The position numbers were made by a program, and so were the translations under genes. From NCBI GenBank assembly GCA_021432655.1, contig MU271412.1:1-64000 (forward strand): a DNA stretch of 64,000 bases, written 5' to 3'. Below the pieces are notes generated by a model. It searched no databases. It was given only the letters and a program-made list of their open reading frames with translations, and was not told the origin of the DNA. The stretch's first letter is position 1. Every line of letters starts with the position of its first letter. Positions 3,746-45,177 of the stretch are shown piece after piece. This DNA is from Atractiella rhizophila. Its lineage: Eukaryota.

Positions 3746-5423
3746 ATGGTTGCAGCCCAGATCAGCCAATGCCTCGACTCCTTCGCGCTCCCTGTCCAAC
3801 CCGTAAGCGATGAGCGTGAGACCGCTAACACCCAGACTGCTCGTCTCACGACTATCGGCATCAGTGCAGCATCAGTGCACATGTCATCCCTTTTCACATC
3901 GCTCAGCACGTAGATTTGGTTTCTGATATTCTCGCAGCGGTCGATCAATGGTTCTCCGTGACACCACACGAAACCCCACTGTTGACGCCACTTTTCCAAT
4001 TCGTTCCGATACTCATCTTCAATTAATTCGGAAAAAACACTTGGGGTCAGAGGTTGAGGCTGACCGTGCTTTTGACAGTTGGCTGTCGGCACTAGATATC
4101 TATCGAGGAGGGAGAAGCCAAGTGCGCAACGATTGTGACGACTCTGGCTATGGCATCCAGTGCGATGGAATATTGACATTTCAAGATGAATCAAAATCCA
4201 TTCTTGAGTTCAGGTCAACGGCTGCTTTCAACCACTATGCACCAAGGATAATTAACCTTGCTCGTGGAGAGGACAATCAAGGAACTGCCTTACGTATTAG
4301 TAATTGTCTAGAGAGTGACGAAAGGTCTATCATCTTCAAGGTCCGCGTCTCACTTACAGAGAGATTGACGTCTTCTCAACCCGTTCCTCCTTCGTCTAGC
4401 TCGGCATAAAGACGATACACAAAGGAACGAGATTTGGATTACTGTTCGATGGTCTCCATGCCATTGTTTTGGAGAAAATCTACTTTCCAACCCAAGAGAC
4501 CCTACCTCGGTTTTATCTCGCGTGCTCCGATGTCTACTCCATCGTGAATACCTCATTGCTCAAACTGCTCTTCGGGCTGTCCTTGGGAGATGACCTTGAC
4601 ATCCGACGATATACAAATGGCTTCGTTCCGCCAGTCCCTGCACCACTGCCGCCGACTAACGAGAAACCTTTGACACGACTCCGACCTTCTTCCTCTTCAA
4701 CGACCCGTTATAATTTACGGTCCAGTCGCAGGAGACAGCAGGCTTTCACACTTGTATGTCTCGAAATAAGCACCGTCAGATTTCCGGCATCTTGTTATCC
4801 TGAGCATGCATTCCAGTTGACAGATGTTTGGCCTGAACGGAAAGGTCGTGGAAATTGTGTTACTCAGTTGGAAATTTGGTCATTTCAGGCGAGAGGTGGC
4901 GGTGGCGTGGTTTATGAAGGCTATATTATCGATGGAGAAGGCTACTCCATGCGAGTGGCAGTTAAGCTCTTTGACCAGACGAAGCGCGATTGCTTTGAAC
5001 GCGAGTCGATAGCTTACCGCCTTTTGGAGAACTATCATGGGGACGCCGTGCCGACGGTTTATGGCATTTACACCTTCGCGAAGGGTATGGGATTAATTGT
5101 TATGAAATTTTAGAAGGGGCATCGGAATGCCAGGACGGGAAGGTTGTGACATCGCAAAGGAGGTTAGTACGCAGACCCCCTACAATTGTTCTAGAGACAT
5201 AAATTAGTCACAGGTTGGAACTCATCACAGCGATCAAGAAAATCCATGCTTGCGGAATTCTTCATGGCGATGTGGAGATGCGCAACGTGTACTTGGAGAG
5301 TCAAGAAACTACTTTTACGACTTCTCACATTCATGGACGGCTAAAAGGGTTGCAACTCCGGCAGCGATGGAGCGAGAAATAGAACATTTGGAGACCCTGC
5401 TTGAAATGGACGAAGGCAATTAG
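3746..5423 (+). CDS. PD-(D/E)xK-like domain + C-terminal protein-kinase-like domain (frameshifted in this assembly)
   Basis: Kinase motifs: GGGGVVY, VAVK, FERE, VPTVYG, IHACGILHGDVEMRNV (~5243-5290), YDFS. N-terminal 'GIQCDGIL...ILEFRS...HYAPRI'. Introns at ~4341-4399 and ~5163-5213. Four single-base frameshifts fall in homopolymer runs. Confidence 0.7.
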
Positions 5424-6166
5424 TATGTGCTCATTCGCATTCCTCCTATAAAATTCATTATGAATTTTTAAAGATCAATCAAGGATCGCCACGAATTCCC
5501 CGCCTCCTTCCAGTTATTGCCTAATATTTGTACACATTCTGTCATTATAGCTGCATGGCACGACGCATTGAGAAACTCTTTTTGTGCAAAATCAAGCATA
5601 AGGTTCTCATTTTCATAAGTCATATTCACTTTTGTCGTCTTACTGTCATCTTGTCAATCTTAGTTTTGCCATCTACTAGTAACTGCATTACCAAACTTAC
5701 AAATAACACCCCTCTTGCAATATCCTCTTCCCTCTCCTACTGTCCGACCACATTCTCGTCCCTCACTTTCCATTCTCTCCCTCTTCCCTCCCTTCTCTCC
5801 GGCACCCACGCCTAATCGTCCCACCTCATCTCGGCCGCTCTCCCTCTGCTGGTGGAGTGGATGGAGGAAGGGAAGAGTGGGAGGAAGACGGGTCCGGACG
5901 GAGGGAGACGCTGGGTCACAGGGCACTGGCAGGGAACAGGGGAAGGCACTATTTTTGGGTGCCATTTGGGAGTGATGGTCACTAAAGCATACCTGATGTA
6001 AAAGTGATGAGTTACAGATCCAAAACAGACGTAGTTTACAATGGATAGAGGAACAAACGAAAGAACGCTTTGTGTATACGTAGAGAAAGATGAATAATGA
6101 TGATGGACGGGATGACGATAATGTGCGAGACACAAAAAGCTTCCATTCTCCCAAGGAAGACAGGTA

Positions 6167-9100
6167 CTACTTGGGAGGCGCTGCTGGCGCCTTCCCTTCT
6201 CCCCTTCGCTGCTTTTGAAGCTCCTTCCTCAACACCTCGGTCCATAGAGGTCGCTCCGGTATACGCTCCAAAATATTATCTTTCAGTTTCGCCATCCACT
6301 CCCGCTTCTCTTCATCAGTCCCAGCATAAAAATGAACCTCGCTCTTATCATTGAATATGAGACGGAAGGAACGAGGCACATGCATGTACTCGTCGTCGTC
6401 ATCGTTCGCAATCGAAGTGAGCAACGTGAGGTTATTGTCCTCGATCGCAACGACTTTGAGAAGGTCAAGCTGGAAAAGGGGGGAAGTGACGACGTCGTTG
6501 AAGGCTCGTAACCGCGCGCCTTTCAGTTGCATATACTGGCGTCTCCAAGTCTATGCCGAAATCAGAAATTACACCTTGTGGACAGTGTGCCTTACCAAGT
6601 CTCGCCTGCGATGGTTGAGGAATCCCTCATGAAAGACTGTGTCATGCCATACCAGGCTCTTAAGCCCGAACATGGCCTTGTCCAAGTTGATGGGACCAGC
6701 GTTGCGACCAATTCCAGGAAGGTAAGGCAGGCGCAGAATCTCTAATTCCACGTGTCCAATGGGTTTCTGATCTCCCTTCCTCATGGGTTCCCCATAAGAG
6801 CTGCTAACCGCGGTACTGGATCCACTGGAGGAACTTCCGCTGCTCTGTGATTGGGCTTCAATGACCGTGAACGCAGTGTCTTGTGAGACGCGATAATTTC
6901 CACTGATAGGTGACATTAGCGGCTGAAGGATTCTTCGTTTTCGTAGGTAAGAGCCTTGCAGTTGTTCTGTCGAGAAATCGATGACAGTGCGAGCGAACAC
7001 ACCGTCGTTGCGACAGTGGTATAAGAGGGGTTCCCTTGAGAACGATGGTGGAATCGGTTCTCGGGCTGGGGAAGATTTTGCGGCCTTCTTTGGCGAGCCA
7101 AAGAGTCTGCCCAACCCAGAACGATGTTTCGATTCTGTGGATGTTGGAGTGACTGGTCGAGGGGGAAGGAGGTGAAAATCGCGGTTAGGGTCAATTTGGA
7201 GTTGGAACCGGAGAGAACATGTCAGACGGGGGGCGTAGTTACTGTTACTTGTGAGATTAGGAGCAGGGGTGGTAATTCCAACTCACAGTTCCCATTCTTG
7301 ATTCAAGCGAACATCGTGCGCCAACCGAAACGTATCCTTTGTCGAAACGTCTGTTTCTCCATTTGACATGACACAGGTGAAAAAGGTAGGTTTTGTGGGT
7401 ACGGGTAGACCAGCAAGTCCCATTTTTATGACTGCCACTGGCTGAGTAACCAGTCTGTGAATAGCAGAGACGACGCACGTTTGACGAAAACTACCCCATA
7501 TCTGCTGCGTACAGTCTCCGCTCGCTGAAGTCGAAGTTGCTCAGTCATCTCGCTCTGTCCCAGCTTCAACGACAGTTCTGACCCAAAAAGATGAAACCTA
7601 CAGCATCGCTGGAACGAACTTTCTTCCATACTTTCCCACAGTCAACATCTCCAGCGTTTCCTACAGTACCAACAGTGTCCGCAGCAAAAATGACCTCTCG
7701 CTCGACGGCGCGATACTTTTTCTATACAAATCAATTAGGCATTAGACAAGAGACGATACCAAAGAGGCGTACGTCGCTACCATCTGCGACACGCTCAAAT
7801 TCTCTCCTCAGATTTTCCACAAATGCCGGTCCAGGAGTAGGTAGAAGGACGTCAGGCAGTATCGCGGGTTCGTCATCTGTTCGGGGAGCAGAGGTAGATG
7901 GGGCGAGTGAGACTGTAAGTTCCTCTTCTTCTACTGTTGGGTGGCGAGTCTGTCCGCAAGCTTTGAGTTCGCAATAAAGAATGAGAAAATAGAGGAAGCA
8001 CGAACCTTCTGTACCTGCATATCCTCCGCATCCCCAGTGCTGAGACTCCTTCTTCCCCTTCCCTTCGCCCTCCTACGCGCAATGATCTCCTTCTCCCTTT
8101 GCCCAGGCGTCATTGCTCCAACCCTTGCAGCCTGCGCATTACCGCCACCTCCTATTCCGGACAGATTGCTCTCCTCGCTGACTGTTCGATGATGACCTCC
8201 CATATCGCTGACCAGCCTTTCCAGCGGAGATTCGGCAGTAAGAGGTGTGAGTAACGACGAGTTTAGAGGAGGAGTTTGCAGAGCTACAGGCTGCGGAGCA
8301 GGCGCGTCAAGCAGCTGAGGCGAAGGCACTGGAGATGGTTTAGGAGGCAGAGGGGGCACACGGGCATCGGGTGCTGATTCAACATTGTAGTTCGCGAGTG
8401 AATCCACGAGACCAGCTTCCTCCAACCTCTTTCGCTTCATCCGCTCATGAATCCCATCCCTCGTAATCCTCGCACGTCCTCTAAAGCTTCCTCCTCCACC
8501 TCCACTACGCGAAAGCGATGACTGAAGCACAGAATTTTTGCGCTCCAAAAGTCCTCCTAAATCCCCAAGTCCACCGCCTGATAACGGATCCAGGTCCGGC
8601 AGAGAGTAAAGTGAGGACATCGAGAGGGATTTTGGCATGTGCGCATAATTCGTGTTGGGAACGGAAGGAGCGTTCGAAACCTTGGTAAGCGAATCGAGTG
8701 AGGTGGATGATGCAAGGGGGGCTGGCGGAGCGGAAGAGTTGGGAAGGCGAGGGAGAGGACGTTGTGTTGGTGGGGAAGAAGACATGGGCTGCGCCTGTGA
8801 CGCGATTTCGTCCCGCTGGTGTTCCTCGATGGCAAACTCGATGATACTACCGTCACCCGCTTCTTCCTCTTCTCCATCCTCCAAGTTTCTGAGGTCTACT
8901 TTCTCACTCCTTCTTAATCCGAGACCAGAAAACTGGCCATCTCCCTCTTCCCTAGGACGTGGCAGGCCCTCCAAGACTTTAGCAGGTGACGAAGGGCGGG
9001 ATGCTGTTTGAGAGAGAGTCGGGCTGAGAAGTTCTCCATGAAGGAGATCGTCAACCATCCTCTCCATCGAGAACCGCGAATCATCAAACGAACCCATCGA

Positions 9101-10850
9101 GGAACGCGAACCATTCGAGCGGAAAGAGACGTATGAGGAGTTGCCTTCCTCTTCGGCATCGCGACGCTCGAACTGTGGCAGGGATAAGGAGTTTCTATCC
9201 CTCGATCGATCAATTTCCGAAGGCGGACGGTCGATGGATAGCCGCTGTTCGTTTCTCGGAGACGGAGGCATCGGTGAGAAGCTGCGCTCTTGGTGCGCGT
9301 CCATCGTCGGCGTGGGAAGGTCTATCTTCTGCATCGGCGGCGAGACCGTTTCCTCCCTCTCCAACCTCCAACTCTCCTCTCTGCTCGCCTCGAGGACAGT
9401 GCTAAGCTCTACTCCGCCTATGCGCTCAACCTCTTCCGCACTCAGTCGACCGTAGAAGTCCACCAATTCGTCCACTCCTCCTTCCTCCACTCCCTCCACA
9501 CTCGCAGCAGAGTCGCGCGACCCTCCCGACTCTCCTGATCCCGCAGAAGACGAAACGACGCTACTGGCCCAAGACACCTCTCTCTCATACTCGACTACCT
9601 GCTGTAACACCTCATCCGGCGCAAACGTGACTGTCTTTCTTCTTGGTCTCCCCAGTCCCAGTGCCTCTTGGCCCATACCGGGAGAAGCGCCTGGAGAAGA
9701 GGGGAAAGCGATTCCTTCGAGCGGAATCGGGGTAGAGGAAGGACGGGCAGGTGGACGTGGACCGTGCAATCCACGGGATGGCCGCGGATCCTTGATTATG
9801 CCTTGCGGAGTAGGCGATGTGAGGTTCACAGATGCGGCGGAAAGAGGAGGAGTCGGCGAAGGCTGAGGGACTACAGATGGGGACGGAGACCTGATTTCCC
9901 TGCTCCACGTTGACCGAGGAAGGTCCTCTTGCATCTCTTGAGAGGAAGAGGAGTCGGTTTGAAGGAAAGGCGAAGCGCTCACCTTTCCCGCCTGTTTCAA
10001 TCCTCCCACAGATGGCCTGCCAGCACCCATGTTGCGATGAGGACGAGGTGCTTCTTCTGTCATCCCGATGGAAGAAGAATTGCGGGCGAAGGAATGGGGA
10101 CGCGGCGTGTTGGCAGCCGTTGTCGACGTCGTCGTGCGCGACGGCGTGAAGGCGCTGAGAGGACGTGTGTGGGGGACGGGAGTGGTGCGATCAAGTGAAG
10201 ATCTAGATGATGATGGCGTCATAGAGGGAGGTGGAGGTGAGACGGATGGAGGAATGACGGGAGAAGGGGAGGGAGAGATGGAGTTCCATGAATTAGACTT
10301 TGGCATCGTCCCTCCTGCTTCTGAAGGAGACGGATCTTTCTCCCTAGGAGGCTGCGGACGAAGGGACGGCATGGACTTCTTTTCTTGCACGGCTGCTCCA
10401 CCTGTTCCTACCAATGAAATCCTCAATCCCATCCTTCTTCAGAAGTTGCTAAGGAATGCAAGACTCACCAGTCCCGCCGCCATCCAGGAGTCCCAAACTT
10501 CGAAGGGCCATCTCTCTCTGCGCTCCTTCTCGCTTAACCGGAACAAAAGCTTTTCTCTCTCCCACTCCAACGCCCTTCCTCTCCTCATCGCGATCGCGGG
10601 GTGGGAAGCCGCTAGACGACTGTTTGAAAATAGAATTGGAGACGAGCGAGTTCGTCTTGACGTGACTGAACGAGTTCGACGTCCTCCTCGCGACCAACGG
10701 CGGCGACTTCGCATCGCTGCTCGCGGCTGCGGGAGAAGACGTGGGAGAGCCGCTGGAGGAGGTGCTGTTGGTGGAGCGGTGGAGGCGGAGGGGTGCCCAG
10801 CCAGAGTGGGAGGAGGACAGGATCTGGGCTGTCGTTGGGGCGGGTGCCAT
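6167..10850 (-). CDS. Bud4/Int1-like anillin-related septin-associated protein (long Ser/Pro-rich N-terminus, C-terminal PH domain)
   Basis: Multi-exon gene. The C-terminal 'HEGFL...|TWRRQYMQLKGARL..F..SFRLIFNDKSEVHFYAGTDEEKREW' is the PH pattern typical of fungal Bud4 homologs, preceded by an 833-aa low-complexity exon. Confidence 0.8.
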
Positions 10851-11941
10851 GACTAATGCGTGCTTAGAGTGTTCGTGCGTGTCGTGAGTGATGAAACGGC
10901 GTGAGAAGAGTGTTTTGGAGAAAGACGAAGTGATCTTTGTGATCTGGCTGGTTGTTGTCGTTCGTTTGGAGCGCGTTGTTTCCGCACGTGATTGCCACAA
11001 CGCATCAACCATCATCTTCACTCTACTAACAGTAGGAGGGTATGGTGGCATCCCTCAAAGATAACGTGAATTGTCTGGTGCTGGTTGAATATGAATAACG
11101 GGACGTCGTCGTGGTGAGCTCATCGAGCTTGGTTTCATGACCGTGACGCTGGCAGGGATGCAAGTCCCTCTTTCGCAGGAGTGCACCACATGCAGAGTGA
11201 GAGTGATTCAGAAAGTGCTGGCTGACGAGTCCGCAAATCGATTCAAGAACAGTTAGTACTCAGTCCCCTTTGTTGACCCATGGACAGCAGTCGCTCCTCT
11301 GTTGTGCGCGACGAGCATGACCGGGAGGATCCATCAGGATTTCTACACAGCCTTGTTCTAGTCCTTTCCAGGGTAGAATATAGCTGGAGTTCCCACCTAC
11401 TCGTAATGCCCGTTGAATGCCGAGTCCTCCTTCAGGCTGCCATGTGCACTGTTCTGCGTTGTTTAACACACACATCTGATGAACCAAAGGGTGATGATGG
11501 CTGAGGCTCTGAGGATTCACATTCACGCACCCGCCTGAAGAATGGTGACGTTGAAACCATATTTAGCTCTCTTTCTGGCTCGATACATGGATGCTTCGCA
11601 GTTCACGATATCAAGAGCGTGGTGACTCCATCTCGGAATGTCATGGGCTTCGATCTCCCCTTCAATATTTGGTCGCCGTTGCTCCGCGCACTGTACTGCA
11701 GATCCTCCCTCTCACCCACTGATCCACCGAATATTCGGTGCTACCAATATTGGCAACTGAGCTCGAGGAGGCAGCTCACCTTCTCTGCACCGAGCTTCCT
11801 TGAGCATTACGAGGGTGACTGAGCCATGTATACAGAGTATGGGCAAAGGAGGAAGATATAAAAGACACACTTTGACCATGTTCAAATTCCCATAATAAAG
11901 CAGCTACAACACAATCGCAAGCAACCATTAATATTCCCAAT

Positions 11942-12650
11942 ATGAAGGCCATTCAACTCGCAGCTTCAGTTTTTCTGGCGGCTTCAGCTCTCGCCACTCC
12001 TCTCAATCTCGTCAAGAGGCAGAGCTTCCCACTCACATACGAATACGACGACGCCGACCAATTTATCACCTACAGCAAAGGGTGGACCCATCTCTGTGAG
12101 TTCCCGTTCTCCCTATTCGAATCTTCATTCTCAAATTGATTGTTTGCTTCAAGCCAATCAAGGCGACATTGATCGCAAAGGGACTGAATCTTACACCAAC
12201 GATCCCAATGCGTACGCTCTTTTTTCACTCACCAGGGTCTTGCATGACAGTGGTTATAATGTTAGGTACCTCTCCTTTCCAGCGCAGGCTGGCGTAGAGC
12301 AATACTACAATGTTACCATTTGGGCCGGAAAGAAGGCCGACAGAGGTGACTTCAAGTTTTACGTCGATGATCAATATGTCGGCACCGGACACGAATACGA
12401 TGCTGCAGCTCACGACGCTACAAAGTCCGGCATCGTATTTAAAAAGGATGGGTTAGTCTCTCTCTTGCTTTTCTGTTACAGAGTCGTCCTGACGTTGGCG
12501 AGAAGCATCAAAGCTGAAGCGGACTCCAAATTTGTTCTCAAGAACGGTGGTTCGCACTACATCTCTTTCGACTGTGAGGAGTACCACTTGTCTGTTCTGA
12601 ATCCAAACTGATCATGAAACAGACGTCGTTATTGAGTATTACGGCCCGTG
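11942..12650 (+). CDS. Small secreted protein with galactose-binding-like (jelly-roll) domain
   Basis: Signal peptide MKAIQLAASVFLAASALA; Kex2-like KR; 'YDDADQFITYSKGW' and 'RGDFKFYVDD' motifs; several short GT-AG introns; TATAAAA upstream at ~11857. Confidence 0.7.
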
Positions 12651-13201
12651 ATCAGAGAAGAGAATGCCTACTATTAAAGAACGGACTTTCTGATTTAAAT
12701 CTGCAATTTCACACTCGTTACATATAATCATGTTACAATGTCGTCTCAACAAAAGCAAAGACCTTAGACGCGGTATGACGACGAGCACTACGCGACAGTT
12801 TCCTAAACGTCAATTCATCACCAAGACCTGTACCAATAAACTGTAGGTTATGGACGCTTTTGATCGTGAAGAATGATAACAGCAGCAGAGTGTGTAGATC
12901 AACTGAAGTCAGCCTTTGCAATTCCACGATACAGTCCATGATAGTAGACAAATCAGAATTGACAACGCTGACGCGTATTGACAGGATGCATTGAGGCAAT
13001 CAAATACCACAAGCTGTTACGACAACGTTATTATAAAGATTGCATTGGTAGAATCGGTACCCAACATCACAAGATTTTCAGAGTTGAGCACTATGGAACA
13101 CACGAGGCAGGAGATTAGGACATGATCTCTCAAGTTAGAACATAGCTGTCTAGGACCAACCGGCACACCTGAACATATTTTCAAAATTCGTTGACAACAG
13201 T

Positions 13202-14765
13202 ACAGTTTATGGTCAACATAGGCTTCCTCTTGACTATCACGACAGCAATAATATGCCGCTTCTCATCCGGTACTTATGACAAGTCGTTAATTTGAGATCA
13301 ACAGATTACCCATTGGAGGGCTTGCATGTACCCATTCGCATACCCTGCAGACGAGCTGTAGGGTCATCAATGGCACAACTAGTAAGGCAACACGTCTTCT
13401 CAACTCCCCTCCGGCTGTCAACGTACATTCCATGTTCTACTCCCCTAATTAGTGTTTTCCAACCTCAGCGGAATATTGCAGCCATTGCAACAGCAATGAA
13501 TGTACTGAAAGCTTTTCTGTCTAGACATGAGTAAGTCACTTGTTGAACCGACCATCTGTCCCGTAGGTTTCGCTGCCCGTGGTAGCCTGAGCTTGTGGCA
13601 GCATCGACGTGCTAAAAGTCACATAAAAGTAATGTCATACACACCAAATGCCAATGATCACACTATTACAATGGCGCAGTTTCCACATCAATATCCGGAG
13701 GACTATGATCGTCCCCATGTCTCTCTCTCGAAGCATTGTAACTAAATAAGTAAATCTGTCTATAAATCCCATCTACTGAGTGAGATGGAATCTCATACAA
13801 ATCACATAGCCACCATTTAATTTCCTGAGCATTTTCCCCACCGCTACTACATGTCGAACGATTATTTCTTTGGAATCCATGACGACATTCCTACTCGCCA
13901 TTCTCAGGGGTCTCTCACTGAAGAACCTACATCAACTACGAGAGGTCCGGCTATAAGTGGCACATCACTAACACTTGGTGGTATCAGGTTCCACTGGACG
14001 GCATCTGGAGTCGAAATATTGATACCGTGGTAGGGGCAATAACGTATGCCACTGGCATTTACAATCATGGATATAGTGTTATTTTGCTCATCTAGAGTGC
14101 GGTATCAGTGCCGAAACGCGTATCATATCTATATGAAGCCTTACATATAGAAATATAGGTAATGGTTGTCGAATCCATTTCAGGAGTCCAACCACGATGA
14201 AACCAAGACGTATATGTGATCGCTAGTGACAGCTTAGCGAAGTGAGTGGACGACATTGGGTTCGACGTTGACGAGTAGAGTCAGTGGATGCACTTGTACG
14301 AGCAGCAATGGTGTGAATTTGGTGTTAGTATTTCGTCAAAGTCAAACCAAGCAGTTGTTAGGTAACTAATCTTTCACGTTTGTGCTAAAAAACTGATCAA
14401 AGCGCCGTCTACTGTGTCCAAAGCGCCTGTGACAAGTACCATCAGCAGCTGACGGAAGATTTATCAACGCGAACCTTCGACCCATCCCTTCTTCGCAGCA
14501 ATCCCCTCTCCAATGATCCAAACGTTTTCATCCCGTCCAGCTGCGTCACCGCTCGTCGCCCATTCCTACACCAATACTGGTGAGCCGTCTCAATCTCAAA
14601 GGGAACGCACTTCAAGGTCGTGCTTATTGAGGCCTCCCAGCGAGGGCAAATGGTTGCCACCGTCCTCCCAATAGGCATACACGCACTCCACAGCCGAGGG
14701 AACGGTAATATTTGAAAATATGTATTGTAATTGGTCTTTCAGGTCTGCGTGTATCTGTTCCGGAA
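13202..14765. repeat. Tandem duplication, copy 1 (~1.57 kb; includes an orphan copy of the oxidase 3' exons)
   Basis: Aligns with 14773-16339 at an offset of ~1571-1574; an A10 run lies at the junction (14764-14773). Confidence 0.95.
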
Positions 14766-14772
14766 AAAAAAA

Positions 14773-17887: not shown

Positions 17888-18469
17888 CTTTGCAACCTCC
17901 GTGGTCTAGGGAGTGGCGGACACTGGGAAGGGAGCGACTTTATAGTGGAAGGATGGAAGCGCGGCCACGCCGAAACTTGAACTTGAGGTGTTGTTTGCGG
18001 ACCGAACATACAGGGTTACTCCTTCAAAATAAGTACTGTCAGTCAGAATTTGTGCCAAAGGGTTTCGAGGAGAACACGGTCCAACCCGCATTCTCTTACT
18101 CGTATGAAATCTTAGGTGTTGAATGTGCTATTCCCGCGGAGTGTTGTTTGTTGTTGTCTTCCCTCATGACGAAGGCCACTGTCCGTCCATGTCAACGTCG
18201 CACTTTTCGGCGCGGAGCATTTGTGAGGTCAATATCTGTTAGCCGAACTAGGTAGCCTTCACACGGATTAAGGAGGTTGAAGGAAATTGAATATTGAACG
18301 GGTTCTCACGTGGACGTCAACGATGCTGCCACCGCGGGACAAGGGGGAGTTCGATTCGGCCAAAAAGAGGAGACTCGATGCAATTTTCTTTCATCAGTAG
18401 AAATACTGCTTCCCATCAGCTCAATCCTTTTATCCCCGGCGAACTCACCAAGCTCTGCATACCCGAAAA

Positions 18470-21772: not shown

Positions 21773-21858
21773 CACCCTAACCAAGGATCGAACCTGGAAT
21801 CTCCCGCTGGCTACACAAGTGTAGGAGGCGGACACGTTAACCATTGCGCTATTAGGGC
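21773..21858 (-). tRNA. tRNA-Arg(CCT) with ~13-nt intron
   Basis: GCCCTAA acceptor stem, TAGCGCAATGG A-box, anticodon arm TCCGC-CT-CCT-A[intron]A-GCGGG, GGTTCGATCC B-box, followed by a T9 Pol III terminator. Confidence 0.9.
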
Positions 21859-33830: not shown

Positions 33831-34204
33831 ATGGCTTAAAGTGTATAGGTAAGTTGCGCTTATACTTGTTTCCGCGCACAGTATTCACAACTGAGCCTCA
33901 GGTGTTCGTTTGACATTGCCATTCCCTCTCTTCACAATAACTTATTTGTTCTTGGGTGCTTGGTCGCTGTGCATACTTTCGCAATCCGTACGTCAACGTG
34001 TTAATTATATTCCTTCCAATTCCAATCCAGTTCCTTCGTTACAACCCGACTGTGCCATGGAGGTCAACAACGAATCAGTGATGACGTAAGCCATCGATGG
34101 GACGATTGAACCGAAGAAGCATTCCGAGCCAGCATTCCTGTGTGGGTTTATTAGAAGGTATAGATATTAGACAGGGGTGGTGCATCATCAGGATTGCCAC
34201 AACC

Positions 34205-35299
34205 ATGACTTCCCCAAAGGTTTTCATTGTCACTGGAGGCGCCAATGGTACGTCAGTCTACCAAAGTTTTGACGAGCTGATCACAAACTCAGGTATCGGA
34301 GCGTTCATAACCTACCATTTAGCAACTGTTTTACCACAGCCCATGCGAATCGCTGTACTTGATTTGGACTTAGATGCCCTGAAGCTTTTCGAAGAGCGCC
34401 TGACTAGGTCGCCGCCAGAAGGTTGTCCAAAGCTTTCTGCCGATACGTTTCTGTTCCTTCAATGCGATGTCTCCAAAGAGGAAGAAGTTAGGCATTCAGT
34501 CGAAATAATTTCGAGGCAATGGGGCCCAGGTCTTGACGGTCTTGTAAACAATGCTGGTATCCCCTTTGCCTATGGTTACGCGAGTGAGAAAACGGACTTC
34601 ACCGACTGGACGGCCGAAGAATTCCTGCGTTATCAGGAAGCACGTTATACCCTCTCGTCCTAACGTTTGTCTGAACTGAAAAAGTTGGATAGGTTCATGT
34701 TTTGGGGAGCTTCCTGCTTGCGAAACATTGTGCACCTTACTTAGAGACGAGGAAAGGTGCCATCGTCAATATCAGTAGTGTGAGGGCACATTTTAGTGAT
34801 CCACTGCAGGAGGGGTATGCAGCGTCAAAGGGAGGAGTTTCGGCGCTCACTCACGCACTGGCAACCAGCATGGGCGCTAAAGGATTGCGTGTAAACTGTA
34901 TCTCTGTGCGTTTCTGCCATATCATCTCTACCACAACTGAAACAGACGGCAGCCGGGGTCGGCCAAATTATTTTATCTTCCATCCCTAACTGTCGCTCAC
35001 CAGGTACATCGACGTGTCGTCCGGCCGACAAAAGAGCATCACACGCTTTCCGCCAGCGGTGGACACACCTCCTGCTATTTCACTGCCTTACCATTTCCAG
35101 ATGCTGACAGGACGCGTTGGACGAGGGGAGGATGTTGCAAAGCTAGCTTGGTTTCTACTTGATAACGAGCAGAGCGGCTTCTTGACAGGACAAGACATCT
35201 GCCTTGAGTAATCTTTCCTCTGCCCTACCTAGCGCCAAATCTAACTGCACGTGTGTGTAGTGGTGGATTCACGAGAAGAAAACAGGACGAATTCCCTAG
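34205..35299 (+). CDS. Short-chain dehydrogenase/reductase
   Basis: VTGGAN|GIG, CDVS, LVNNAG, IVNISS, YAASK, RVNCIS, GRVG, FLTGQ motifs. Confidence 0.92.
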
Positions 35300-35575
35300 A
35301 GATTTGCAAGCCTCCCTCGCCGGACATGTGCCGAAATAGGTGTAAGCTTTTCCACAAATCTGACTTCGCTCATTGCAAGGTTGATCCAAGGTATCTCCTC
35401 AAAATTCCTTCGCGATTGACAAGGTTTCTAAGGGGTTTCAAGCGCACAAGGACATCTGTTGTACCCTTGCATCATGATAATAAAAACAAGATTGCCGATT
35501 CAGGACGATGTATATTCCCGACATCCATCGTCTCCCTTGTACCTTCGAAATTCCTGCTATTTCACTGCAAGATCA

Positions 35576-37987
35576 TTACTCCCTATTCTCCTCATACACC
35601 TTCAATCCTTCTTTCGCCTCCGCCGCCTCCTGCAATATTGTCTGCTTGATCTTCTCAGTCCTCGGCTCGATGACACATTTGAACTGGTATGGCCTAGTGT
35701 TGAAAGTGGGCTTGTAACCAGTCTCCATGCTGGTATCTGGATACTCTGGCTCTTTCGTCTCCGGATTGATGTAAGGCGAGTAGTTGAAGCCCCAAAGGAG
35801 ACGCGACCCGGTGAGGAAGAGAGAGCCTACATCAAATAGAAATGAATGACAGCGAAGTCATAAAAGTAGACAACAAACGCTCAGCAAAGTGTTGGCCAGG
35901 GCACACCCGTCTGCGTTCCGTCAATGATATGTTAGACGGTGTCAGAGCAGGACGTGGAGACGCACCGTCCCCATCCAAAAGAGCTGTGCCCACGATTATT
36001 TGTTGACGGGTACTCCTGTCCATGGAGGAAACGTTCGGGCTGTTCCATGATCAATCTTGTCTCAAACATCCAATCCTCAACAGTAACGTAACGTACGTCA
36101 AACTTCTCCGGATCAGGGTACACTTCCTTATTCTGGTGGATAGACCACATGTTTCCTTGCCTGTGTCACCTCTTCTGTCAGGTTCCGACATGCCTACAAG
36201 TAGGAGGAATAGAAACAAACACGATGGATCCAGCGGGGATGAAATACGTCTTTCCTTTGTGTTCATACCAGTCATCTGTCCCAATACAATGAGCAATGTT
36301 CTGTCTTTGAAGCATTAGCTCCTACCTTCAGTTGAAGCATGCGGGGTCCCTCCAAGGACTGCCACCGGTCTCCACCTCATCTGTGGGCGCACGTACCTCT
36401 TATCAGCGCGACCGTCTCAAGATTGAAGAAGGGGGCGAAACGTACAGTTTCTTTAATCACAGCTTCGGTATACACCAAATCATCCTTGTCGTTATAGTTG
36501 GGGCTCCTGCCATCCCCCACAACACGATCCATTTCTTCGTGGACCTTCTTCTGAACCTCCGGAAAGCTGACCATGACGAGGACCAACGACTGGAGGATGG
36601 AAGAAGTGGTGTCGATTCCCGCTCCGAAGAGCGAAGCAGGCATTCCATTAAAATCTGACCATCAGTAATCGAATCAGCATGGCTCTCAACAATTCGTGGA
36701 GGGAAAACAGGAGGAGAGACGAACCGATGTCATCTAACCCCAGTTCCTCCCACCCCAGCTCGTTTCTAATCTCCAAAAGCTCTCGACAGAAGCTCTCTGG
36801 CGCATTTCCAGCCTTCACTTTCCTCTTTACCTCTTCTACTAGTTCCCTGGCGTTCTCGCGTCCCATCTCTCTGTATTTCAAAGCATCCCGTTTGAGAGGG
36901 ACGAGGAACGATGGGAGTTTAGCGAGAAATGGAAAAATCTCGAACCTTTTCCGAGCCGTTTTGGTAAGAAGCAGGGACGGTGGAAGGAGGCAGAGGAGCG
37001 TACCACTGAGCTCCAGGCACTTTGACGCGGATAAAGAAGGAGAGACTCTGATTGAGTTTCTGGTAAGCCTTGTCGGTCCTCGTGTCCGTGATCCTCCTTC
37101 CGTAAGAGATGCAAACAATGAGCGACGCGGTGTATCTGCAGATCCCAACCTCCTAAGCTCCAGTCTGCAACAAACACAGAGCGTGGACGGACCGATAAAT
37201 TTCTTCATACCAATCCTTCGCACCATCTCGGACGAGGTGCAGTGCCAGTTGCTTGCCTTCCATTTCCATGATATCTATTTACATTATGCAAACACAGTCA
37301 GTGAATTGTTGAAGAAGAGAATGGAGTGACAAGGTGGATAAAGAATAGCGTACGGAGGTACGAATCTGTCGCTTTTGGCATCATGGCCATGTGGAACACC
37401 TTCCTCTGTGCTCTCCAAGCATCTCCATACGGCGCGTGCACCTACAAACACTTCGTTCTCAGTCATCTGTTTCCGTTGGAAGATAAGAGGAAGAAAAAAC
37501 GCGCACCATCCCTTTACCTCCAAGCAGAAGCTCTCCGGCGGCGACGAAGCGAGGGCGGGAAGAATATTTGTGGCTTCTCCTCTCCAACAGGTCGATGGCG
37601 ACCTACTCCCGCTATCAGTTTAGGTCCTCGTGACAGTGAAAGATGAAAGATGAGGCGGACCTGAGGATGTCCAATTACTATTCTCGGGACGTTGGAATCG
37701 TAAACGGTGATGATATCCCCGTACTCATCGTTCATCTTCTTGAACCAAAGCCAACTCCTGGAAGTGGGTACCTTGAGCTTATGTCCAAGGAAGGGCAACG
37801 GTCTCGCCCCAGGGTACGGCGGGAGATTTCGAGGTCGGCGAAGTTCGACATAGATGCAAGATACGACGATAACCGCAAGAGGAACTGCCAGTATCCCCAG
37901 GACGTAAGACGATGAGGTCCAGATGGCATTCAGCATGACATTGACGCTGTCGGGTACTGGGAGGGCGAACGGCACGGCGGGTGCCAT
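35576..37987 (-). CDS. Cytochrome P450 (CYP64-like family)
   Basis: TM anchor, LPPYPGARPLPFLG, AGIDTT, KET(xR), YPDPEKF, PERF, FGWG|RRVCPG; many short introns. Confidence 0.92.
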
Positions 37988-38763
37988 GGCTTTCTGCAAT
38001 CTTGCAGCAAACTGGAAAACGACTTGGGTTGGAAGTGGTCAAGTAGGGGCTGATGAGTTTCAGCGCCGTTTTAGGAGGCGGCCGAGAGAGAAACTGTTCA
38101 GGAGGATCATCTCGTGTGCCGATGTGAGATCGTGGAGATGTTGGAGATGCCGAAGTGGCCAAGAGCTTTCGGCACGAGTAGAAGTATGAAAAAAGCGATA
38201 GAACAGGAGCAGAAGTGCGAAAGCGACAACCAGGGATTGGATATTGGATATTGGGATTTTGCTGCGGTTGGGGCTATTAGTTTTTGGCGTTACGACTTCA
38301 TAATGCGTCGGTACTGGTGGGTGCCACTGCTCACTTCTCCTACTAATCTACTAATCGATACTAATAGCTCAGGCTCGAAAATTAAGATCACGACGTTTCG
38401 AATTCGATATGTTGTCATATTAGCTTTTGTATCTGATGATCCTTCCCTTGTAACGAGCAACTTTGGCATTCGACTATCATTCAGCCGAGATTCAGCAACT
38501 GCATACTACATAACTCACTTCGATCTACATCGCATTTACATTAGTCCTTCCCCTCACCCTTCAAACTATCCCAGACCTTGACTTCGAAACTTGAAAACCA
38601 CATTACGTAGTCGAAATGTCGACGTGTTCCCAATGACGCCGCCGAAATTGGAACCGTGGGACGTCATGCATTCATGCAGCTCGCCCAACACAACTCTCCG
38701 TACATTATAATAAGGCAACATCCACTCTTAGCTCCTCAACACCAAGCTCACCCAAATATCGCA

Positions 38764-39824
38764 ATGGCTACGACGCAAGCAACAGCCCAGAAACCAACGA
38801 CTGGCATTCGTCCAGGTCGGCATGGAGCATTGCTCCCACTCGGGTTCTCACCCCTTCTCCTTCGCATGCATGGTTCAATCCTTCGCTCAGAAGGACTAAG
38901 AGGGCCAGTTCTCTTCTTTTCCTTGTACACCTACGTCCTTTATTTGCTTCAAGGCGTCCTCTCTCTCGGCGGTGCTGGCGGAGTAGTCGGGTTGCTGAGT
39001 CTCGTCGTGCGTCCTCAATAATATTCTCTCCCAAGTCTGAGGAAGAATCGATTGATTTGGACTATAAAGGTTGGATTGTTAATCAGCTTCCGGAGCAATT
39101 CTTCGAGCGACAGGTGGCACGAAGGCAGGAGGGTCTTTGCCGACTTGAGAGGGGAGATTCGCAACATTGTCCGTGGGCTGAAGGTGGAGAGAGAGGAGGT
39201 GTTCACCATCCTTGGGATGTATCCCCACGCCGTCAAGTACGTCTTTCTCTATCCGTATCCAACATTACATGAATACTGATGTTTATCAGGCACCACCTTC
39301 GCGGTGAAACCGGAACGGACCATCCCTCCCTGCAGCCGCTGAAATCCTTCAAGTTCTTCTCCCGCATCGATCGTACCACCTCTCTCCCTCTCTCCATCCT
39401 CTCCTATCTCCAATACGCCGCTCCCGAACTCTCCGGAAACGTATCCACGCTCTCCAACCTCCTCAACACCGCCGAAAAGATCAAAAGCACTCCCATCCCC
39501 CTCGCACTCGCCATCCACCTCCAACAGGTCCTCTTCCTCTACCTCCTTTGCGTACCTCTGCAGATAGTCCCCTCTCTCGGTCTATACGCCGTACCCGTCG
39601 AAGCTGTGACTGCTTTCGTGTTTCTTGGAGTGGAAGGAATCGCCAGAGAGCTCTCCGATCCGTTTGGCTACGAAGGTATGTGTTCTTTCTGGTCCGGCTT
39701 GGAGTTAAAGGATGCTTATAATAATCCAGAGAACGATTTGCCGCTTGAACTGTTTTGCACTGAGATCGAAAAGGACATCAAGGACGAAGTGGAGAGGAAA
39801 AAGTGGTTAGGCCCAGTATATTGA
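38764..39824 (+). CDS. Bestrophin-like (UPF0187/YneE-type) anion channel
   Basis: 'VGLLISFRSNSSSDRWHEGR', 'EKIKSTPIPL', 'GVEGIARELSDPFG..NDLPL' motifs. Confidence 0.85.
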
Positions 39825-39934
39825 TATTGATTCCATGTCCAACTGTGATGGAAATTGTAAATAGCATCGCATTTGTATCAATACATTCGTCTTCCGTTTT
39901 GTCTATTCCTGCTTGTCTCTTAGCCGTATCAAAT

Positions 39935-41396
39935 TCAGATAGCATCCAATAATTCTCTCTCCACCGGTCCAACAGTCTCACCGCACACAACAACCAAACA
40001 ATGCAACGGCTCGCCATAACTTTCCCCCTCCCTAGCAGCCAACCCCTCGATTGTACCACGACAAAACTGTTCCGTTTCTGAACCAACTCGTGAAGCGATT
40101 ATCACCTCAGTCTTCGGGGATAGCTTGGATAGGGATGGAGTGGATTCCCCGCCCGCTGAAGTCGATCGCACCTCGATGCATTCGAGCATTTGTTGCAACG
40201 CCGTCGTCGGATTCATGAACCGTGGAGGCTCGTAGATCTTCTTTCCCCTTCAATCATCAGAGGCGAAAACAAGAGTGAGCTATCTCTAGATTTTGCAGTC
40301 GAACAAGAGAATGGAGGAGAACAGAGCATCTAGGACAGACCTGGCTAGGTTCATCTCGCTGATCTCCTTCACTTTGATATCCAGCAAACAGAGCGTATGG
40401 CATCCTCTCTGCAGGTTCTGCTCGACCTTCTCGATCCATGAAGAAGGACGCCAGGTGTCCGTGAAGAAAGGAATTGAGACGGTTGGTCCGTAGTCATACA
40501 ACGGGAGACCTAAATTATCACCAGCCTTTGAGCGAAAGCCGGAGGGGGTGAGGATGGGACACACCAGCAGCACCTATCGCGTTCATTATTGATGCATTAT
40601 GAATGATCTCTACTCTTATTCGCGGTTCGTGTTTTCTCGCTCTCAGCAGGATGTCTGCGTGTGTCGTCGCACTATCCACACATGAGTGTCTACTTGGAGT
40701 CGATTAGAAGGGACCAGACGAACCCGAATGGATCCCCGACGACCAAGAACGAAACATCGTCCACATCAGCTCCGGAAAGGATGGAGTCGCAGCCTTCGTC
40801 GCTTTCGACCATTTCACGATCGGCGACTATCATTTGTTTGGAGTAGAATGATTCCTAGCTTTCCGATGTCACAACTTTGAATGTCATATAGTCTACCTGG
40901 TGGTGAAATGCAGCTAAAGCAAGTGTGATTGATCGAATGTGTATTCGATATCACCTAGCTATTTTCTCCTGAAACTGATGAATTGTATGTAACAACATTG
41001 AATCCACAGCCCGTATCTACGATTTGGGAGAGAGTAACACCATATGTCGTCTAGACCTAGTGAAGTAGAGTCCGTCTTTGCTTTACGCAAAAACTCGATC
41101 AAAAACTCTTGGGAGGTGAATTTGAAGGAAGAGACAACACCAATGTCGCTTTTTACGCTGCATCTATGAATCTGGGTAGAGTTCGATTACACAGCTGGGA
41201 AGGCACAAATCCAGGAGGAGGAAACGAGGCAAAGAACAAAAGCAGGAAGTGAACATACCAGTCTTTCCTTCCCAACCCCGAGAACACTGGTGTAGCTCTC
41301 TAGATAGACTCTCTTGCTCCTCCGAATCGCCTCTTCTCCTCTCAGAGTCACATCTTTCTCGGTAGCTAGGCCTAAACCTACAATATAGAGCACCAT
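39935..41396 (-). CDS. DPH5: Diphthine methyl ester synthase
   Basis: [72 protein letters not shown] motifs. Confidence 0.95.
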
Positions 41397-41488
41397 CCTT
41401 ACGTTGAGATGTCTTTGAAGTTTCGTGAAAAACTCAAGGGATCAGCTGCAGAGTTTGGCCCGTGACTAACTCAGCAGACTTCAACATC

Positions 41489-42819
41489 TTATGTAACTTC
41501 ATTCAGGTCTTTGGATAAATTCATACAATTGACAACACTAACTTGGCTCGAATTGACGAATACTGAGGTAGCGGCTGACAGGATGCCAGTGACAAAATGG
41601 AGACTTGCCCAGCTCTTCCGTTCCATTGATTCCCAGCTTCCCTTGCATTGACAGCTTCCGAGTCTTCGCACTTTGCCGGCCTCCGACTTACGGATTCGAG
41701 AAAATAAGAAATCATTCAGGTTCATATATCCTTTCTCATCGATAGCTATGCTTCCCCCATGCAAATCATTGTGGACGAGCGTAGCAGTGTGAAAATGTTC
41801 GTCGTGAACTTCGTGCCCAGACGAATCAGCCTGAATGAGGATAGGACTCTATATAATCTTCAAAAGCTTGGGGAACCTGGGCTCGAATTGCCGCAATGAG
41901 CGCCTCATCGATAGGTTCAAAATCGTCAGGAATTCGACAAGAGACTGCAACGATAAGCTCTCCTACAGGAGAGAGTGCAGGATCGAGACAATTGGAAGTA
42001 ACGAGAAGTGGTCGACGGCGACCGGGGACTTGGAGGTTTCGTAGCACAAGAAAGCTCTTCATGGTGTTCAGAAATGCATGATCAATATTTGTGAAACCTA
42101 GGATCGATGCCATCTATGTCCATGTCAGGAGTTAGCGCTCCACAGCAGCAGGTAAAAAAGAAGGTCCAAACCCTTGAGAGGATCGAGTCTGTCTCCGTCG
42201 TGTGTCTGAAGACTCGAATAGGTCTGGCACGAGTGGCTCGGTTCACGATTCTCGGGAAGTAATGATCACCGACTGGGGGGCTCTTCTGCTCGCATATGGC
42301 AATTCCCTCTTCCATCTTCGAACAGGATCTGATTAGCCCATCGGTCTTTATTCCTGTTTGCCCCCATGCTGAAGAATCTCGAAAAATCGCCTCGAGAGCG
42401 CTATACACTATGCCATCTTGACCCAGAGCAAAAAGAGCTTCGGAAACGAAGTCAACAAATGCGGAATGAAACGCTTGTCCGACGGTGCTATCTTCCGTCA
42501 AAAGCAGCCTGTTGCGCCGTCGTTCCCAGTCCTCGATATTCCTTTTCAGGTAGGTCAACTGTTCGTCGGACAGATTCTGATTCAGGTGCTGGTCGACGTA
42601 TCGCTCAAAACGATTGATAAGCAGCTGAGGCAGGGCTGCAACGTGAACAATGCGATCAGGGATGTTGGAGGCGTTTTGCTTGAATACAGCTGAATTAGGA
42701 TAGTACGCTTTCGTCCTCGGTTTCCAGTTTAGTTGCTTCTGAGAATACGTTAAGCGAGAGGCCACCGTCACTCTGTACCCTTTCAGGATGCCGAGAAGTT
42801 GCTCCTTGGCTGAATTCAT
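41489..42819 (-). pseudogene. Nuclease-like+kinase-like family member A (PD-(D/E)xK-like region present, kinase N-lobe apparently missing)
   Basis: 'GIKTDGLI...ICEQKSP..HYFPRI' followed by a kinase C-lobe remnant 'LVHNDLHGGSIAIDEKGYMNLNDFLFSR'; N-terminus clearly paralogous to the 45177 copy. Confidence 0.6.
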
Positions 42820-43897
42820 GTCTGTCACAATCACGACCGTGAATGAAGATTCAATCGGCTTTCCTTAGATAGCAGTCTAAGTCACAAATGCATATAAGCA
42901 GAGCTAAAGGCACAAACTGAGGATGCAAACTCGTGAAGCCAATCCTAGTGGGCAGTTCCTCCTTGTGATGGACAGGGCATAGAGAGGTAAAAGAAAAGAA
43001 GACAAGGAGAAGAATTCATGGAAAAGCTGCTATCAAATATCTTCATCAGGCAGAACAAGTCAGGTGGAGTGAAGCTCTACTGTAATGGCTCAGACACTAA
43101 AATGAAATATTTCTTTGTGCCTTCCCTCTAGCTACTGCTAATAGCTCGAACTGTATGAAGAGCGGTTGGAGCTGAAGGATCACCCTACAAGGTTCTTCAC
43201 GCTCAGCTCCTGCGCAGGCATGCATCTAGTGCGACGCCGACGGAAACACTGGAAAGCATGAAACTTCGAAGGACATGAAAACAGGCTACACAATGGGAAA
43301 GAGACTTGTGTAGACTGAGGGAAGACGCACCTAAGAATCGAGTTGGGGAAATCGAAAGCTGGATCCGATTTCAGGATACTCAGGAGTTATTCAAGCACAA
43401 ACGTGAACATTGTTGGCAAATTATAATTTATCGAGCTCGTGCTCTTTACAGACAGCCCCTTCGTTGCGCGTATTGTGTAACGGCCTACTTCTTCCCCTCA
43501 GGGACTGCGCTGCAAGCAGTACTGCTGTACTAGTAGACGCAAATCTGGTGATCAGGAACTGATATGAATTGGACGGAGGATCGTTGGTCAATTGGAAAGA
43601 CTCCAATGAAGTAACAGATAGGGTTTACCTTTTGTCAAAAGTGCGTTGCCAAATTGTACGAGACTCTCTCATGGTTTGCCGCGCGTTATCAAAGGTGGCG
43701 GATTGCACTGATGTGGACCGCTAGCTGGCGTTTGGAGAGTAAAACAGGCTACCTTCCTTGACAGATTTCTGTACCTTGTCGTTGCTCTAGCAATGCCTAC
43801 TCACATCTTCTGATAAAACCGTGTATGATTACAAAGCTGTCAACTTGCCAGGTCGTCAACGCCACTACAACAACTATGGTGACTTGGCTTTCTCTTT

Positions 43898-45177
43898 CTA
43901 CAACTGGATTCTTAGCTTCTTCCTCACATCTATGAGCTCTTCGCATTTTGATTCACCTGGGCATTTGTGCATTCGAGAGAACATGAAATCGATCAAATAA
44001 ACATTTCCTTGTTCGTCCATGGTGACGTTTCCTTCGTGTACATCATTGTGAACGACTCCTAGAGCGTGAATCTGGAGCAAAATGGCGTAGACTTTCTCTC
44101 TGTAAACATGTCAGAAAATCTCTAATAAGATCCGAATGATTAAAGCTTGCTTACTTCAAACCTAGATCTGAGAAGTCGATCCCACACTTTCGCAAGGAAG
44201 GTCCAGTGTGTTGGATGACAGTGACACCATTCTTGCCTGTGGTATTTATGAAAGCGCCGAAGAAAGCAGGGATACTGACGCCAGCAAGCGACCTCAAGCG
44301 CTTGAGTATTCTTAATTCGTGGATAACGTACTTCTTCCTTAAGGGCTTCACTACCACTAGTCCGTCCGACCGGTAGAATGAGGCGGAGAACACGAGGGTG
44401 GATGCGAGCTGCTCCTGCACTTCCAACAGAAGTGGTGTATCCCCAGATGCTATGGGCTCCGCCTGCTCGCGTCGGAACGTGAAAGTGTCTAGTGTTCCCG
44501 CATGCTTGGAGACAGCAGCTATAACTTGAGACTGTGGAATGCGATCCAACGCAATGACATTATGTGCGTATGCGCTGTGGCGATTTGCCATTTCAAGTCT
44601 TTCCATCTGTACCGATCTGTTAGAGACAGCGAAGAGACGAAGTGTAACTTGCCCCCTTAAATACCATTGCTAGTGTGTTTGTGTTTTTTAGATCAACTTT
44701 ACCTCTCCGCCAATTTAACAACTCGTTTGACTTCCGTATAAGCCGTATTCTGTCAATTTCGAAAGGGATTTCGTTCAGATTGTTCGTTGCGTCAAAAATA
44801 TGTGGAAAGCGTTCACCCTGATCGTCTGCCGTGACTGGAAGGTCATCTAATGAATTCGATTTCGTGGTTTTTTCTTGGAAAGATGGAAATCGTTCAGGGA
44901 ATGAGTTGAAGGCTGATGGATTAGGAAGAAACTCTGGAGCCATGTGCTGGTCGACACATCGCTCAAAACGATCGATGAGCAGCTGAGATAGTGTTGGCAC
45001 GTAAACAAGTCGATCAGGGATGTGAACGGCGTTCTCTCGAAACGTTACAGAATTAGGGGAACATGTGGGGGTCGTTGGCTCCCATGACGATCGCATTTGA
45101 GACGATGTCGGTTCGGAACGCATGGTCATTCGGTACCTTCTCAAGATGTAGAGAAATTGCTCCTTGATTGAATTCAT
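43898..45177 (-). CDS. Nuclease-like+kinase-like family member B (kinase domain present)
   Basis: 'LVVVKP..HELRILKRL..IPAFFG', 'IHALGVVHNDVHEGNV..YLIDF..CPGESKCEEL'; introns at ~44101-44155 and ~44610-44675. Confidence 0.7.

Follow-up and report, generated by a model that had tools for sequence, protein, structure and literature searches.

Do three loci near one chromosome end of the basidiomycete Atractiella rhizophila belong to a gene family that joins a nuclease-like domain to a protein kinase domain, and what could such a family do? The stretch analyzed here comprises the first 64,000 nucleotides (nt) of contig MU271412.1 (assembly GCA_021432655.1, forward strand) and is hereafter called the window; it carries gene 1 (3746-5423), gene 2 (42819-41826) and gene 3 (45177-43898). 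An original prediction, based on the sequence alone, had described the three as a family of genes that combine a PD-(D/E)xK-like restriction endonuclease (REase) domain with a minimal kinase. Proteins in which a nuclease domain is fused to a kinase are already known, and the available portions of PMC12693581 and PMC5289972 recognize this arrangement as a conflict architecture. In the Spok proteins, according to the accessible text, the nuclease domain is a DNA-damaging toxin and the kinase domain its antidote. We consider it rather probable that the three loci are diverged copies of one Spok-like gene type, built of an N-terminal domain (N-domain) and a kinase, which is now duplicating, diverging and decaying.

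Kinship of the three loci

Two database proteins served as references: P0001, a protein of 311 residues identical to the gene 2 product, and P0003, a hypothetical protein of 538 residues from A. rhizophila. When ten exon pieces were compared by tblastn with the whole window, only the three loci were found. Exon 1 of gene 1 and exon 1 of gene 2 have a block in common, located at 42354-42235 in gene 2, in which 15 of 40 residues are identical; the expectation value (E) is 9e-06 in a single BLASTP comparison and 0.002-0.004 by tblastn against the whole window, so that the similarity claimed at the outset for these two copies is significant. The score of a second colinear block, between P0003 and gene 2, was reached by 2 of 500 shuffles. 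Genes 2 and 3 are 56% identical over their first 79 residues (E 2e-28), the kinase C-lobe pieces of the three loci match one another in tblastn (E 7e-08 to 8e-04) and the gene 3 protein, after splicing, aligns with the P0003 kinase (E 7e-06). P0003 is also 51% identical to exon 2 of gene 1 over the full exon length (E 4.3e-66); in word searches for relatives of this exon it was the only one among 3735 longer proteins, and proteins of similar length gave none among 675 candidates. Altogether, the alignments indicate a single family with two subtypes, gene 1 with P0003 on one side and gene 2 with gene 3 on the other.

The starts of genes 2 and 3 lie within a repeated segment:

42583..45221, minus strand: tandem duplication that produced the gene 2/gene 3 pair; direct repeats of 93 and 97 nt, 75-81% identical, 2358 base pairs (bp) from start to start

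These repeats extend about 45 nt upstream of both ATG codons. Their spacing, together with the likeness of the first 79 residues, identifies genes 2 and 3 as tandem duplicates. The predicted kinship therefore holds, but these are not three intact genes of the nuclease-kinase type: gene 1 is broken, gene 2 is devoid of a kinase and gene 3 of a recognizable nuclease core.

Gene 2: an N-domain left without a kinase

To follow genes 2 and 3 beyond the assembly, Logan contigs of four sequencing runs were placed on 41400-45300; X1 was taken as DNA, X6 is an RNA run and the kind of X3 is not on record. The features of gene 2 are as follows:

42172..42819, minus strand: exon 1, 216 codons, identical to P0001, with D160 and E177-x-K179
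42114..42171, minus strand: intron, 58 nt, GT..AG, phase 0, after ...SILSR; joint 42113/42172 in a 984-nt X3 contig
41826..42113, minus strand: exon 2, 95 codons plus the stop codon at 41826-41828; rest of the N-domain and start of the linker
41687..41803, minus strand: remnant of a kinase C-lobe, 39 codons (117 nt); tblastn E 1.9e-09 to exon 3 of gene 3

The whole coding span (42819-41826, minus strand) yields a product of 311 residues that consists of the N-domain only. About 8 codons past the stop, and in a different frame, the remnant reads HND-LHGGS ... NDF, with the catalytic-loop asparagine replaced by a serine; about 130 residues of linker and kinase N-lobe that are present in gene 3 are missing from gene 2. 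Since this remnant (41803-41687) survives, gene 2 must descend from a kinase-bearing gene. The X3 contig crosses the stop codon into the remnant, which is thus part of the 3' untranslated region (UTR). A second form of this stretch, found in X1 and X3, differs by nine substitutions and two or three indels (41685, 41754, 41780), and such indels are expected because the stretch no longer codes. The prediction that each gene would end in a minimal kinase C-lobe is therefore borne out by gene 3 but not by gene 2, whose stop precedes the HND..DF remnant, and in gene 1 the C-lobe can be read only across frameshifts.

Beyond the start region of gene 2, an X3 contig departs from the window at 42876 with 15 unlike letters. 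A strain difference may be the reason, or else an intron in the 5' UTR like those of Spok genes.

Gene 3: an uninterrupted frame with the kinase catalytic residues

Gene 3 is made of three exons:

44653..45177, minus strand: exon 1, 175 codons; first 79 residues like gene 2, no recognizable D..ExK motif
44607..44652, minus strand: intron 1, 46 nt, GC..AG; joint 44606/44653 in X6, the same in X3 with a 1-nt ambiguity
44155..44606, minus strand: exon 2, covering the linker and the N-lobe of the kinase; VVVK with K262, HELRIL with E272
44100..44154, minus strand: intron 2, 55 nt, GT..AG; joint 44099/44155 in X3
43898..44099, minus strand: exon 3; HND-VHEGN at residues 343-350, DF at 363-364, stop codon at 43898-43900

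Together they form an uninterrupted frame of 392 residues from 45177 to 43898 on the minus strand. Its catalytic set is complete (K262, E272, H343-N-D345, N350 and D363-F); the glycines of the glycine-rich loop are absent. All three genes had been expected to carry an intron right after an equivalent helix. This is the case for gene 2, after SILSR, and gene 3 does have a real intron, of the GC-AG type, but it begins one codon later than proposed, after ...AMVFKG. Placing the middle part of gene 3 with MAFFT gave two different possible placements, neither of them significant, and both were rejected.

The coding sequence of gene 3 contains 20 of the 40 variant sites listed, 11 synonymous and 9 not, a count that is partial, as 31 further sites exist. 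Most random changes in a coding sequence are non-synonymous, and the proportion seen here suggests that gene 3 is under purifying selection. One of the 9 non-synonymous sites changes the stop codon from TAG to GAG in X1 and X4, where the next in-frame stop comes 8 codons on. The C-terminus of gene 3 hence varies between strains through this change at 43898-43900.

Genes 2 and 3 are transcribed and spliced

Contigs of X3 skip 42114-42171, 44100-44154 and 44607-44652/3, and X6 also skips 44607-44652. In X1, contigs read straight through the gene 2 intron and intron 1 of gene 3. As the introns are removed in X3, one of them also in X6, and two are kept in X1, all three predicted introns are real, and X3 is most simply taken as a transcript data set. 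The two genes are thus transcribed and their introns removed; transcripts of both also occur in a root metatranscriptome. The X3 contigs leave the stretch between the two genes and the sequence outside them uncovered, a gap that is given no weight here.

In X1, two differing contigs, each at about half depth, cover 41590-41810, 42860-43062, 44143-44203 and 44817-44881. The organism may carry two haplotypes (as a dikaryon or diploid), or a second copy may lie elsewhere in the genome.

Gene 1: a broken subtelomeric copy

Two features describe gene 1:

3746..5423, plus strand: gene 1, pseudogene of a P0003-like protein with N-domain and kinase, found by tblastn of P0003 in changing frames
3858..3879, plus strand: 11-bp tandem duplication (3858-3868 / 3869-3879) causing the first frameshift

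Residues 9-502 of P0003 can be covered on gene 1 only by passing through frames +2/+1/+3, an intron (4341-4399), frames +2/+1, a second intron (5163-5213) and frames +1/+3. Beside the 11-bp duplication, frameshifts occur at about 3957-3969, in a T-run at 5108-5111 and at about 5289-5292, and the ExK position reads E-F-R, its lysine changed to arginine. We regard gene 1 as a pseudogene because of these four frameshifts and of the substitution. An assembly error could account for the change in the T-run but hardly for the 11-bp duplication. Rescue of the reading frame by a 5' intron was also considered; inspected by hand, it fails in every phase.

The N-domain: predicted folds and one motif

The motif D..ExK, placed by the motif itself and not through an alignment with Spok, is found in gene 2 (D160/E177/K179) and in P0003 (D133/E147/K149), with the spacings D-x16-ExK and D-x13-ExK, respectively. 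It is intact in these two of the four family sequences; gene 1 has ExR, and none can be placed in gene 3.

Structural evidence is provided by the ESM Atlas with a P0001 model of its own (predicted template-modelling score, pTM, 0.83; predicted local distance difference test, pLDDT, 0.76), every match having predicted models on both sides. Since P0001 is devoid of a kinase, these matches cannot be driven by the kinase domain. With three SPOK2_N clusters, the template-modelling (TM) score by query reaches 0.64, 0.65 and 0.65 (256-263 residues aligned). The two fungal clusters that bear kinase names, an ascomycete and a basidiomycete one, give 0.60 and 0.67, a Crinkler+Pkinase cluster 0.58, and three clusters without Pfam family (one hypothetical, two auto-labelled sialidase) 0.60-0.63. 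A bacterial cluster of restriction subunit R (HSDR_N) gives 0.44 by query and 0.64 by row over 166 residues. Language-model features point in the same direction for P0003, whose neighbours include SPOK2_N+Kdo and Crinkler+Pkinase clusters at 0.94-0.96. By sequence, P0003 retrieved kinase matches only and no nuclease family from a local copy of Pfam-A, and P0001 had no match in PADLOC.

The predicted folds and the motif support, in kind, the reading of an REase-like domain joined to a kinase. As a description of the ancestral architecture, the predicted combination of an REase-like N-domain and a minimal kinase appears to be the best available; as a description of the present copies it goes too far, the motif being kept in one of them and a working-looking kinase in one.

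The kinase domain

Residues 324-490 of P0003 match the kinase domain of KSR2 over a stretch that runs from its glycine-rich loop as far as DF (E 2.9e-04), and P0003 also matches kinase families of PADLOC (E 3e-07 to 5e-05). The Pfam families matched overall are Pkinase, PK_Tyr_Ser-Thr, RIO1, ABC1, APH and Kdo. Only one match reaches a Pfam cutoff, that of gene 3 exon 3 to ABC1 (E 3e-05, 23.7 bits, cutoff 22.9); below the cutoffs, the same exon matches Pkinase (5.1e-05), APH (1e-04), RIO1 and Kdo. For FunK1 (Pkinase_fungal, PF17667), the best value was E 0.075 with 12.2 bits against a cutoff of 24.1, and this for one piece of gene 1 only.

The residues that characterize the protein kinase-like superfamily, namely the VAxK lysine, the helix-C glutamate, HxD with the asparagine of the catalytic loop, and DF, occur without exception in both gene 3 and P0003. 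Gene 2 is excluded by its missing N-lobe and its out-of-frame remnant, and gene 1 has the full set only when read across its frameshifts. As only 29 residues follow the DF motif in gene 3 and 63 in P0003, the usual substrate-binding part of the C-lobe is missing, as in small kinases of the Kdo/RIO type. The kinase of the family, being short, resembles these more than full eukaryotic protein kinases.

Chromosomal setting

One further feature fixes the position of the window on the chromosome:

1..95, no strand: telomere repeat, CCCTAA-type, period 6, 15.8 copies

Since this repeat opens the window, the latter is a chromosome end and gene 1, located 3.7 kb from the telomere, is subtelomeric. Genes 2 and 3 are found 41.5-45.2 kb from the chromosome end, between a fragment of a TP_methylase-type gene (41187-41441) and, on the other side, an RNase_T exonuclease gene (about 47003-47578). 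They are thus set between housekeeping genes, in a region that is not obviously accessory. A subtelomeric or accessory placing, proposed for the whole family, is consequently right for gene 1 but not evident for the other two. Nor did we find support for the suggested origin from a mobile element: 40500-47000 contains 0 inverted repeats and no other mobile-element marks.

Gene structure in the window is generally one of short exons and small introns, and ordinary genes found elsewhere in it encode a PNP oxidase, Got1, a P450, Erv1, a short-chain dehydrogenase, a bestrophin and EMP70. Between the telomere and gene 1 (1-3700) there is no Pfam-recognizable gene, and the open reading frames (ORFs) at 1412-1837 and 2959-3468 match 0 families. 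The longest open frame of the window, 7934-10438 on the minus strand (835 residues), has no Pfam family at E 1e-05 and lies in the most G+C-rich stretch (0.57 at 8001-10000). Finally, a 96-base unit is perfectly duplicated in tandem at 52172-52363 (2.0 copies, 100% match), inside ORF 52110-52562, which Pfam matches to the alpha/beta-hydrolases. The duplication lengthens this ORF by 32 in-frame codons; it could have arisen recently or be an artefact of assembly.

What the family could have been, and what else it could be

Our proposal of a Spok-like gene type in decay can be detailed as follows. The ancestral gene would have encoded an N-domain with a SPOK2_N/restriction-endonuclease-like fold and a D..ExK motif, then a linker and a short kinase ending some 30-60 residues after the DF motif. 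The N-domain would be a nuclease, harmful when unchecked, and the kinase would be what checks it. Toxin and antidote would once have been united in a single protein of this family, and some copies may still function in this way; as a selfish element, the family would spread or persist. The locus would then display the pattern of duplication, divergence and decay described for Spok genes, with three end states of one gene type in a single window: one copy dead, one with its kinase lost and one with its nuclease core lost. The conflict role itself is taken by analogy only, from the Spok and Crinkler precedents.

A number of results weigh against this proposal. Searched by sequence, the family appears to be almost without detectable relatives: P0003 as query retrieved only itself among 8000 scored candidates, and phmmer with exon 1 of gene 2 against 1.84 billion representatives gave only the protein itself and a repeat artefact, P0002. 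The gene 3 protein is apparently absent from the same library, and single-query metagenome scans confirmed 0 of 147 pattern matches for P0001 and 0 of 82 for P0003. The Atlas is the only source of the fold evidence. With hmmscan, P0001 matched 0 families of the local Pfam-A at E up to 10, PF27653 being perhaps absent from that copy; a profile of the N-domain core against PDB sequences retrieved only a repeat artefact from a designed beta-propeller, besides a single match at E 0.42; and the AlphaFold2 models of P0003 (4-row alignment, pLDDT 35.8) and of P0001 (6 rows, pLDDT 41.2) were unusable. The block shared by genes 1 and 2 does not extend to gene 3 as had been supposed, since residues 80-250 of the latter do not resemble the N-domain core of P0003 or of the other two genes significantly, the scores being reached by 193-364 of 500 shuffles. 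As to the Spok family proper, no sequence-level match to it was found here. A relaxed pattern for the Cys/His cluster C-x3-C-x13-C-x5-H-x7-H found none in P0003, gene 2, gene 3 or gene 1 exon 2, and QxxxY was likewise missing from the N-domain of these four sequences, the sole QxxxY lying in the kinase of gene 3. To these points should be added that the frameshifts of gene 1 are those of the assembly sequence, and that the synonymous count of gene 3 is a partial one.

One could assume instead that the loci belong to a lineage-specific family of atypical kinases with an ordinary role, in which the N-domain, of an old nuclease-like fold or of none, is a regulatory or scaffold part and D..ExK is coincidental. 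Nuclease families are not retrieved by sequence, the motif is intact in only two of the four sequences, genes 2 and 3 sit in housekeeping surroundings and both appear in the root metatranscriptome, all of which would suit such a family. However, the gene 2 protein, kinase-less as it is, has SPOK2_N, Crinkler REase-kinase and HSDR_N clusters for neighbours over 166-263 residues, and the motif spacing of P0003 and gene 2 is comparable with residues 219-240 of SPOK3, as given in the available text. A conflict family also accounts better than a housekeeping one for the extreme divergence, for the tandem duplication, for the loss of domains and for a pseudogene next to the telomere. We therefore hold this explanation to be possible but unlikely. 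If the N-domain were not a nuclease, what remains would be an ordinary, fast-evolving fungal kinase family.

A bolder idea, which we consider improbable, is that genes 2 and 3 form a split, two-gene toxin/antidote of the Spok type, acting as a linked addiction or drive module. Spok3(1-490), from which the kinase is removed, has a strong toxicity that the wild-type gene can suppress in trans, as far as the accessible text goes. Gene 2 would be the equivalent of this construct, a nuclease-like toxin on its own, and gene 3, located 1 kb upstream of gene 2 and co-expressed with it, would supply the kinase antidote in trans. The expressed pair of a putative nuclease-only and a kinase-only gene is a natural experiment on an open Spok question, namely how the kinase neutralizes the nuclease and whether it does so in trans.

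It seems very improbable, on the other hand, that all three copies are dead relics, with genes 2 and 3 as transcribed pseudogenes whose products are idle. Decay is visible in the four frameshifts of gene 1, the loss of about 130 residues of linker and N-lobe in gene 2, the absent loop glycines of gene 3 and its stop changed to GAG in X1 and X4. Yet the variant sites listed for the four runs include no indel within the coding sequence of gene 2 or gene 3, against three in the 117-nt remnant; among them, synonymous sites exceed non-synonymous ones in gene 3 (11 versus 9), splicing is exact at 3 of 3 introns, and 5 of 5 catalytic positions of the kinase are kept in gene 3.

Least credible of all is that the genes encode Crinkler-type effectors delivered by the fungus into a plant or microbial partner: a Crinkler+Pkinase cluster does appear in the Atlas (features 0.94 for P0003, TM 0.58 for P0001), the REase+kinase combination makes up about one sixth of Crinkler C-termini in the available part of PMC5289972 and transcripts are present in the root metatranscriptome, but Pfam finds no Crinkler header (PF20147) in the family sequences, and the four sequences checked have neither an LxLFLAK-type motif nor a hydrophobic N-terminus.

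Comparison with known systems

The closest parallel to our Spok-like proposal can be drawn with the Spok genes of Podospora and Fusarium, listed under InterPro IPR052396 in the accessible text of PMC12693581 and represented in Pfam by SPOK2_N (PF27653). Vogan et al. 2019 (PMC6660238, as available) assign domain 2 of SPOK3 to the PD-(D/E)xK kind and give an HsdR subunit as its best match in HHpred, which agrees with the Atlas neighbours of gene 2. The substitution K240A abolishes killing and the kinase confers resistance, according to the portions of PMC6660238 and PMC12693581 at hand; Spok1 damages DNA, and killing accompanies DNA damage (PMC9972908). In Podospora, a subtelomeric Spok pseudogene is known, as well as fragments that keep the resistance part only.

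The family described here recalls these genes by its domain order, that is, an N-terminal region, a putative PD-(D/E)xK-like domain with a candidate catalytic lysine, a linker and a short Kdo/RIO-like kinase. The likeness is also seen in the predicted fold of gene 2, which matches SPOK2_N clusters (TM 0.64-0.65), in the distances D-x13-ExK and D-x16-ExK, comparable with the SPOK3 span cited above, and in the behaviour of the family, whose genes duplicate and diverge fast, with one pseudogene in a subtelomeric position and other copies reduced to a single function. The differences are nevertheless substantial. The proteins have 392-538 residues here, against 772 for the SPOK2_N+Kdo clusters of the Atlas, and the kinase of SPOK3 reaches residue 700 in the text available to us. 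The Spok homologs described in the accessible sources come from Ascomycota, whereas the nearest relative found here is from the basidiomycete Atractiella; the literature searched yielded no description of Spok homologs in basidiomycetes. In addition, the nuclease-like and kinase parts survive here in two separate neighbouring genes.

With Crinklers, the family shares Atlas neighbours, since a Crinkler+Pkinase cluster is found near both P0001 and P0003. In these effectors, toxicity is ascribed to the REase and its regulation to the kinase, CRN8 of Phytophthora being an example (PMC5289972, in the part available). Unlike them, the family has no header domain, translocation motif or secretion signal. 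The likeness to HsdR (HSDR_N, PF04313) comes from the Atlas model of gene 2, aligned over 166 residues with a TM score of 0.64 by row; it is limited by the score of 0.44 by query, by the missing sequence match and N-domain QxxxY, and by the absence of any helicase or motor part. By features, the nearest neighbours of P0001 (0.94-0.95) are stand-alone fungal proteins of 234-258 residues that have no Pfam family and form clusters of 57-441 members, mostly from Ascomycota. A kinship of gene 2 with these unnamed proteins is a lead only, and gene 2 differs from them in deriving from a kinase-bearing gene.

Because no sequence match, Cys/His cluster or N-domain QxxxY was found on the Spok side, and no header or motif on the Crinkler side, we file the family in neither but as a distant member of the REase-kinase kind, probably one that works like Spok. 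If its N-domain proves to be an active nuclease, the REase-kinase toxin architecture of Spok and Crinkler would extend to a lineage for which the literature searched gives no earlier description. The main interest of the locus lies in this lineage and in the split, co-expressed pair that genes 2 and 3 constitute.

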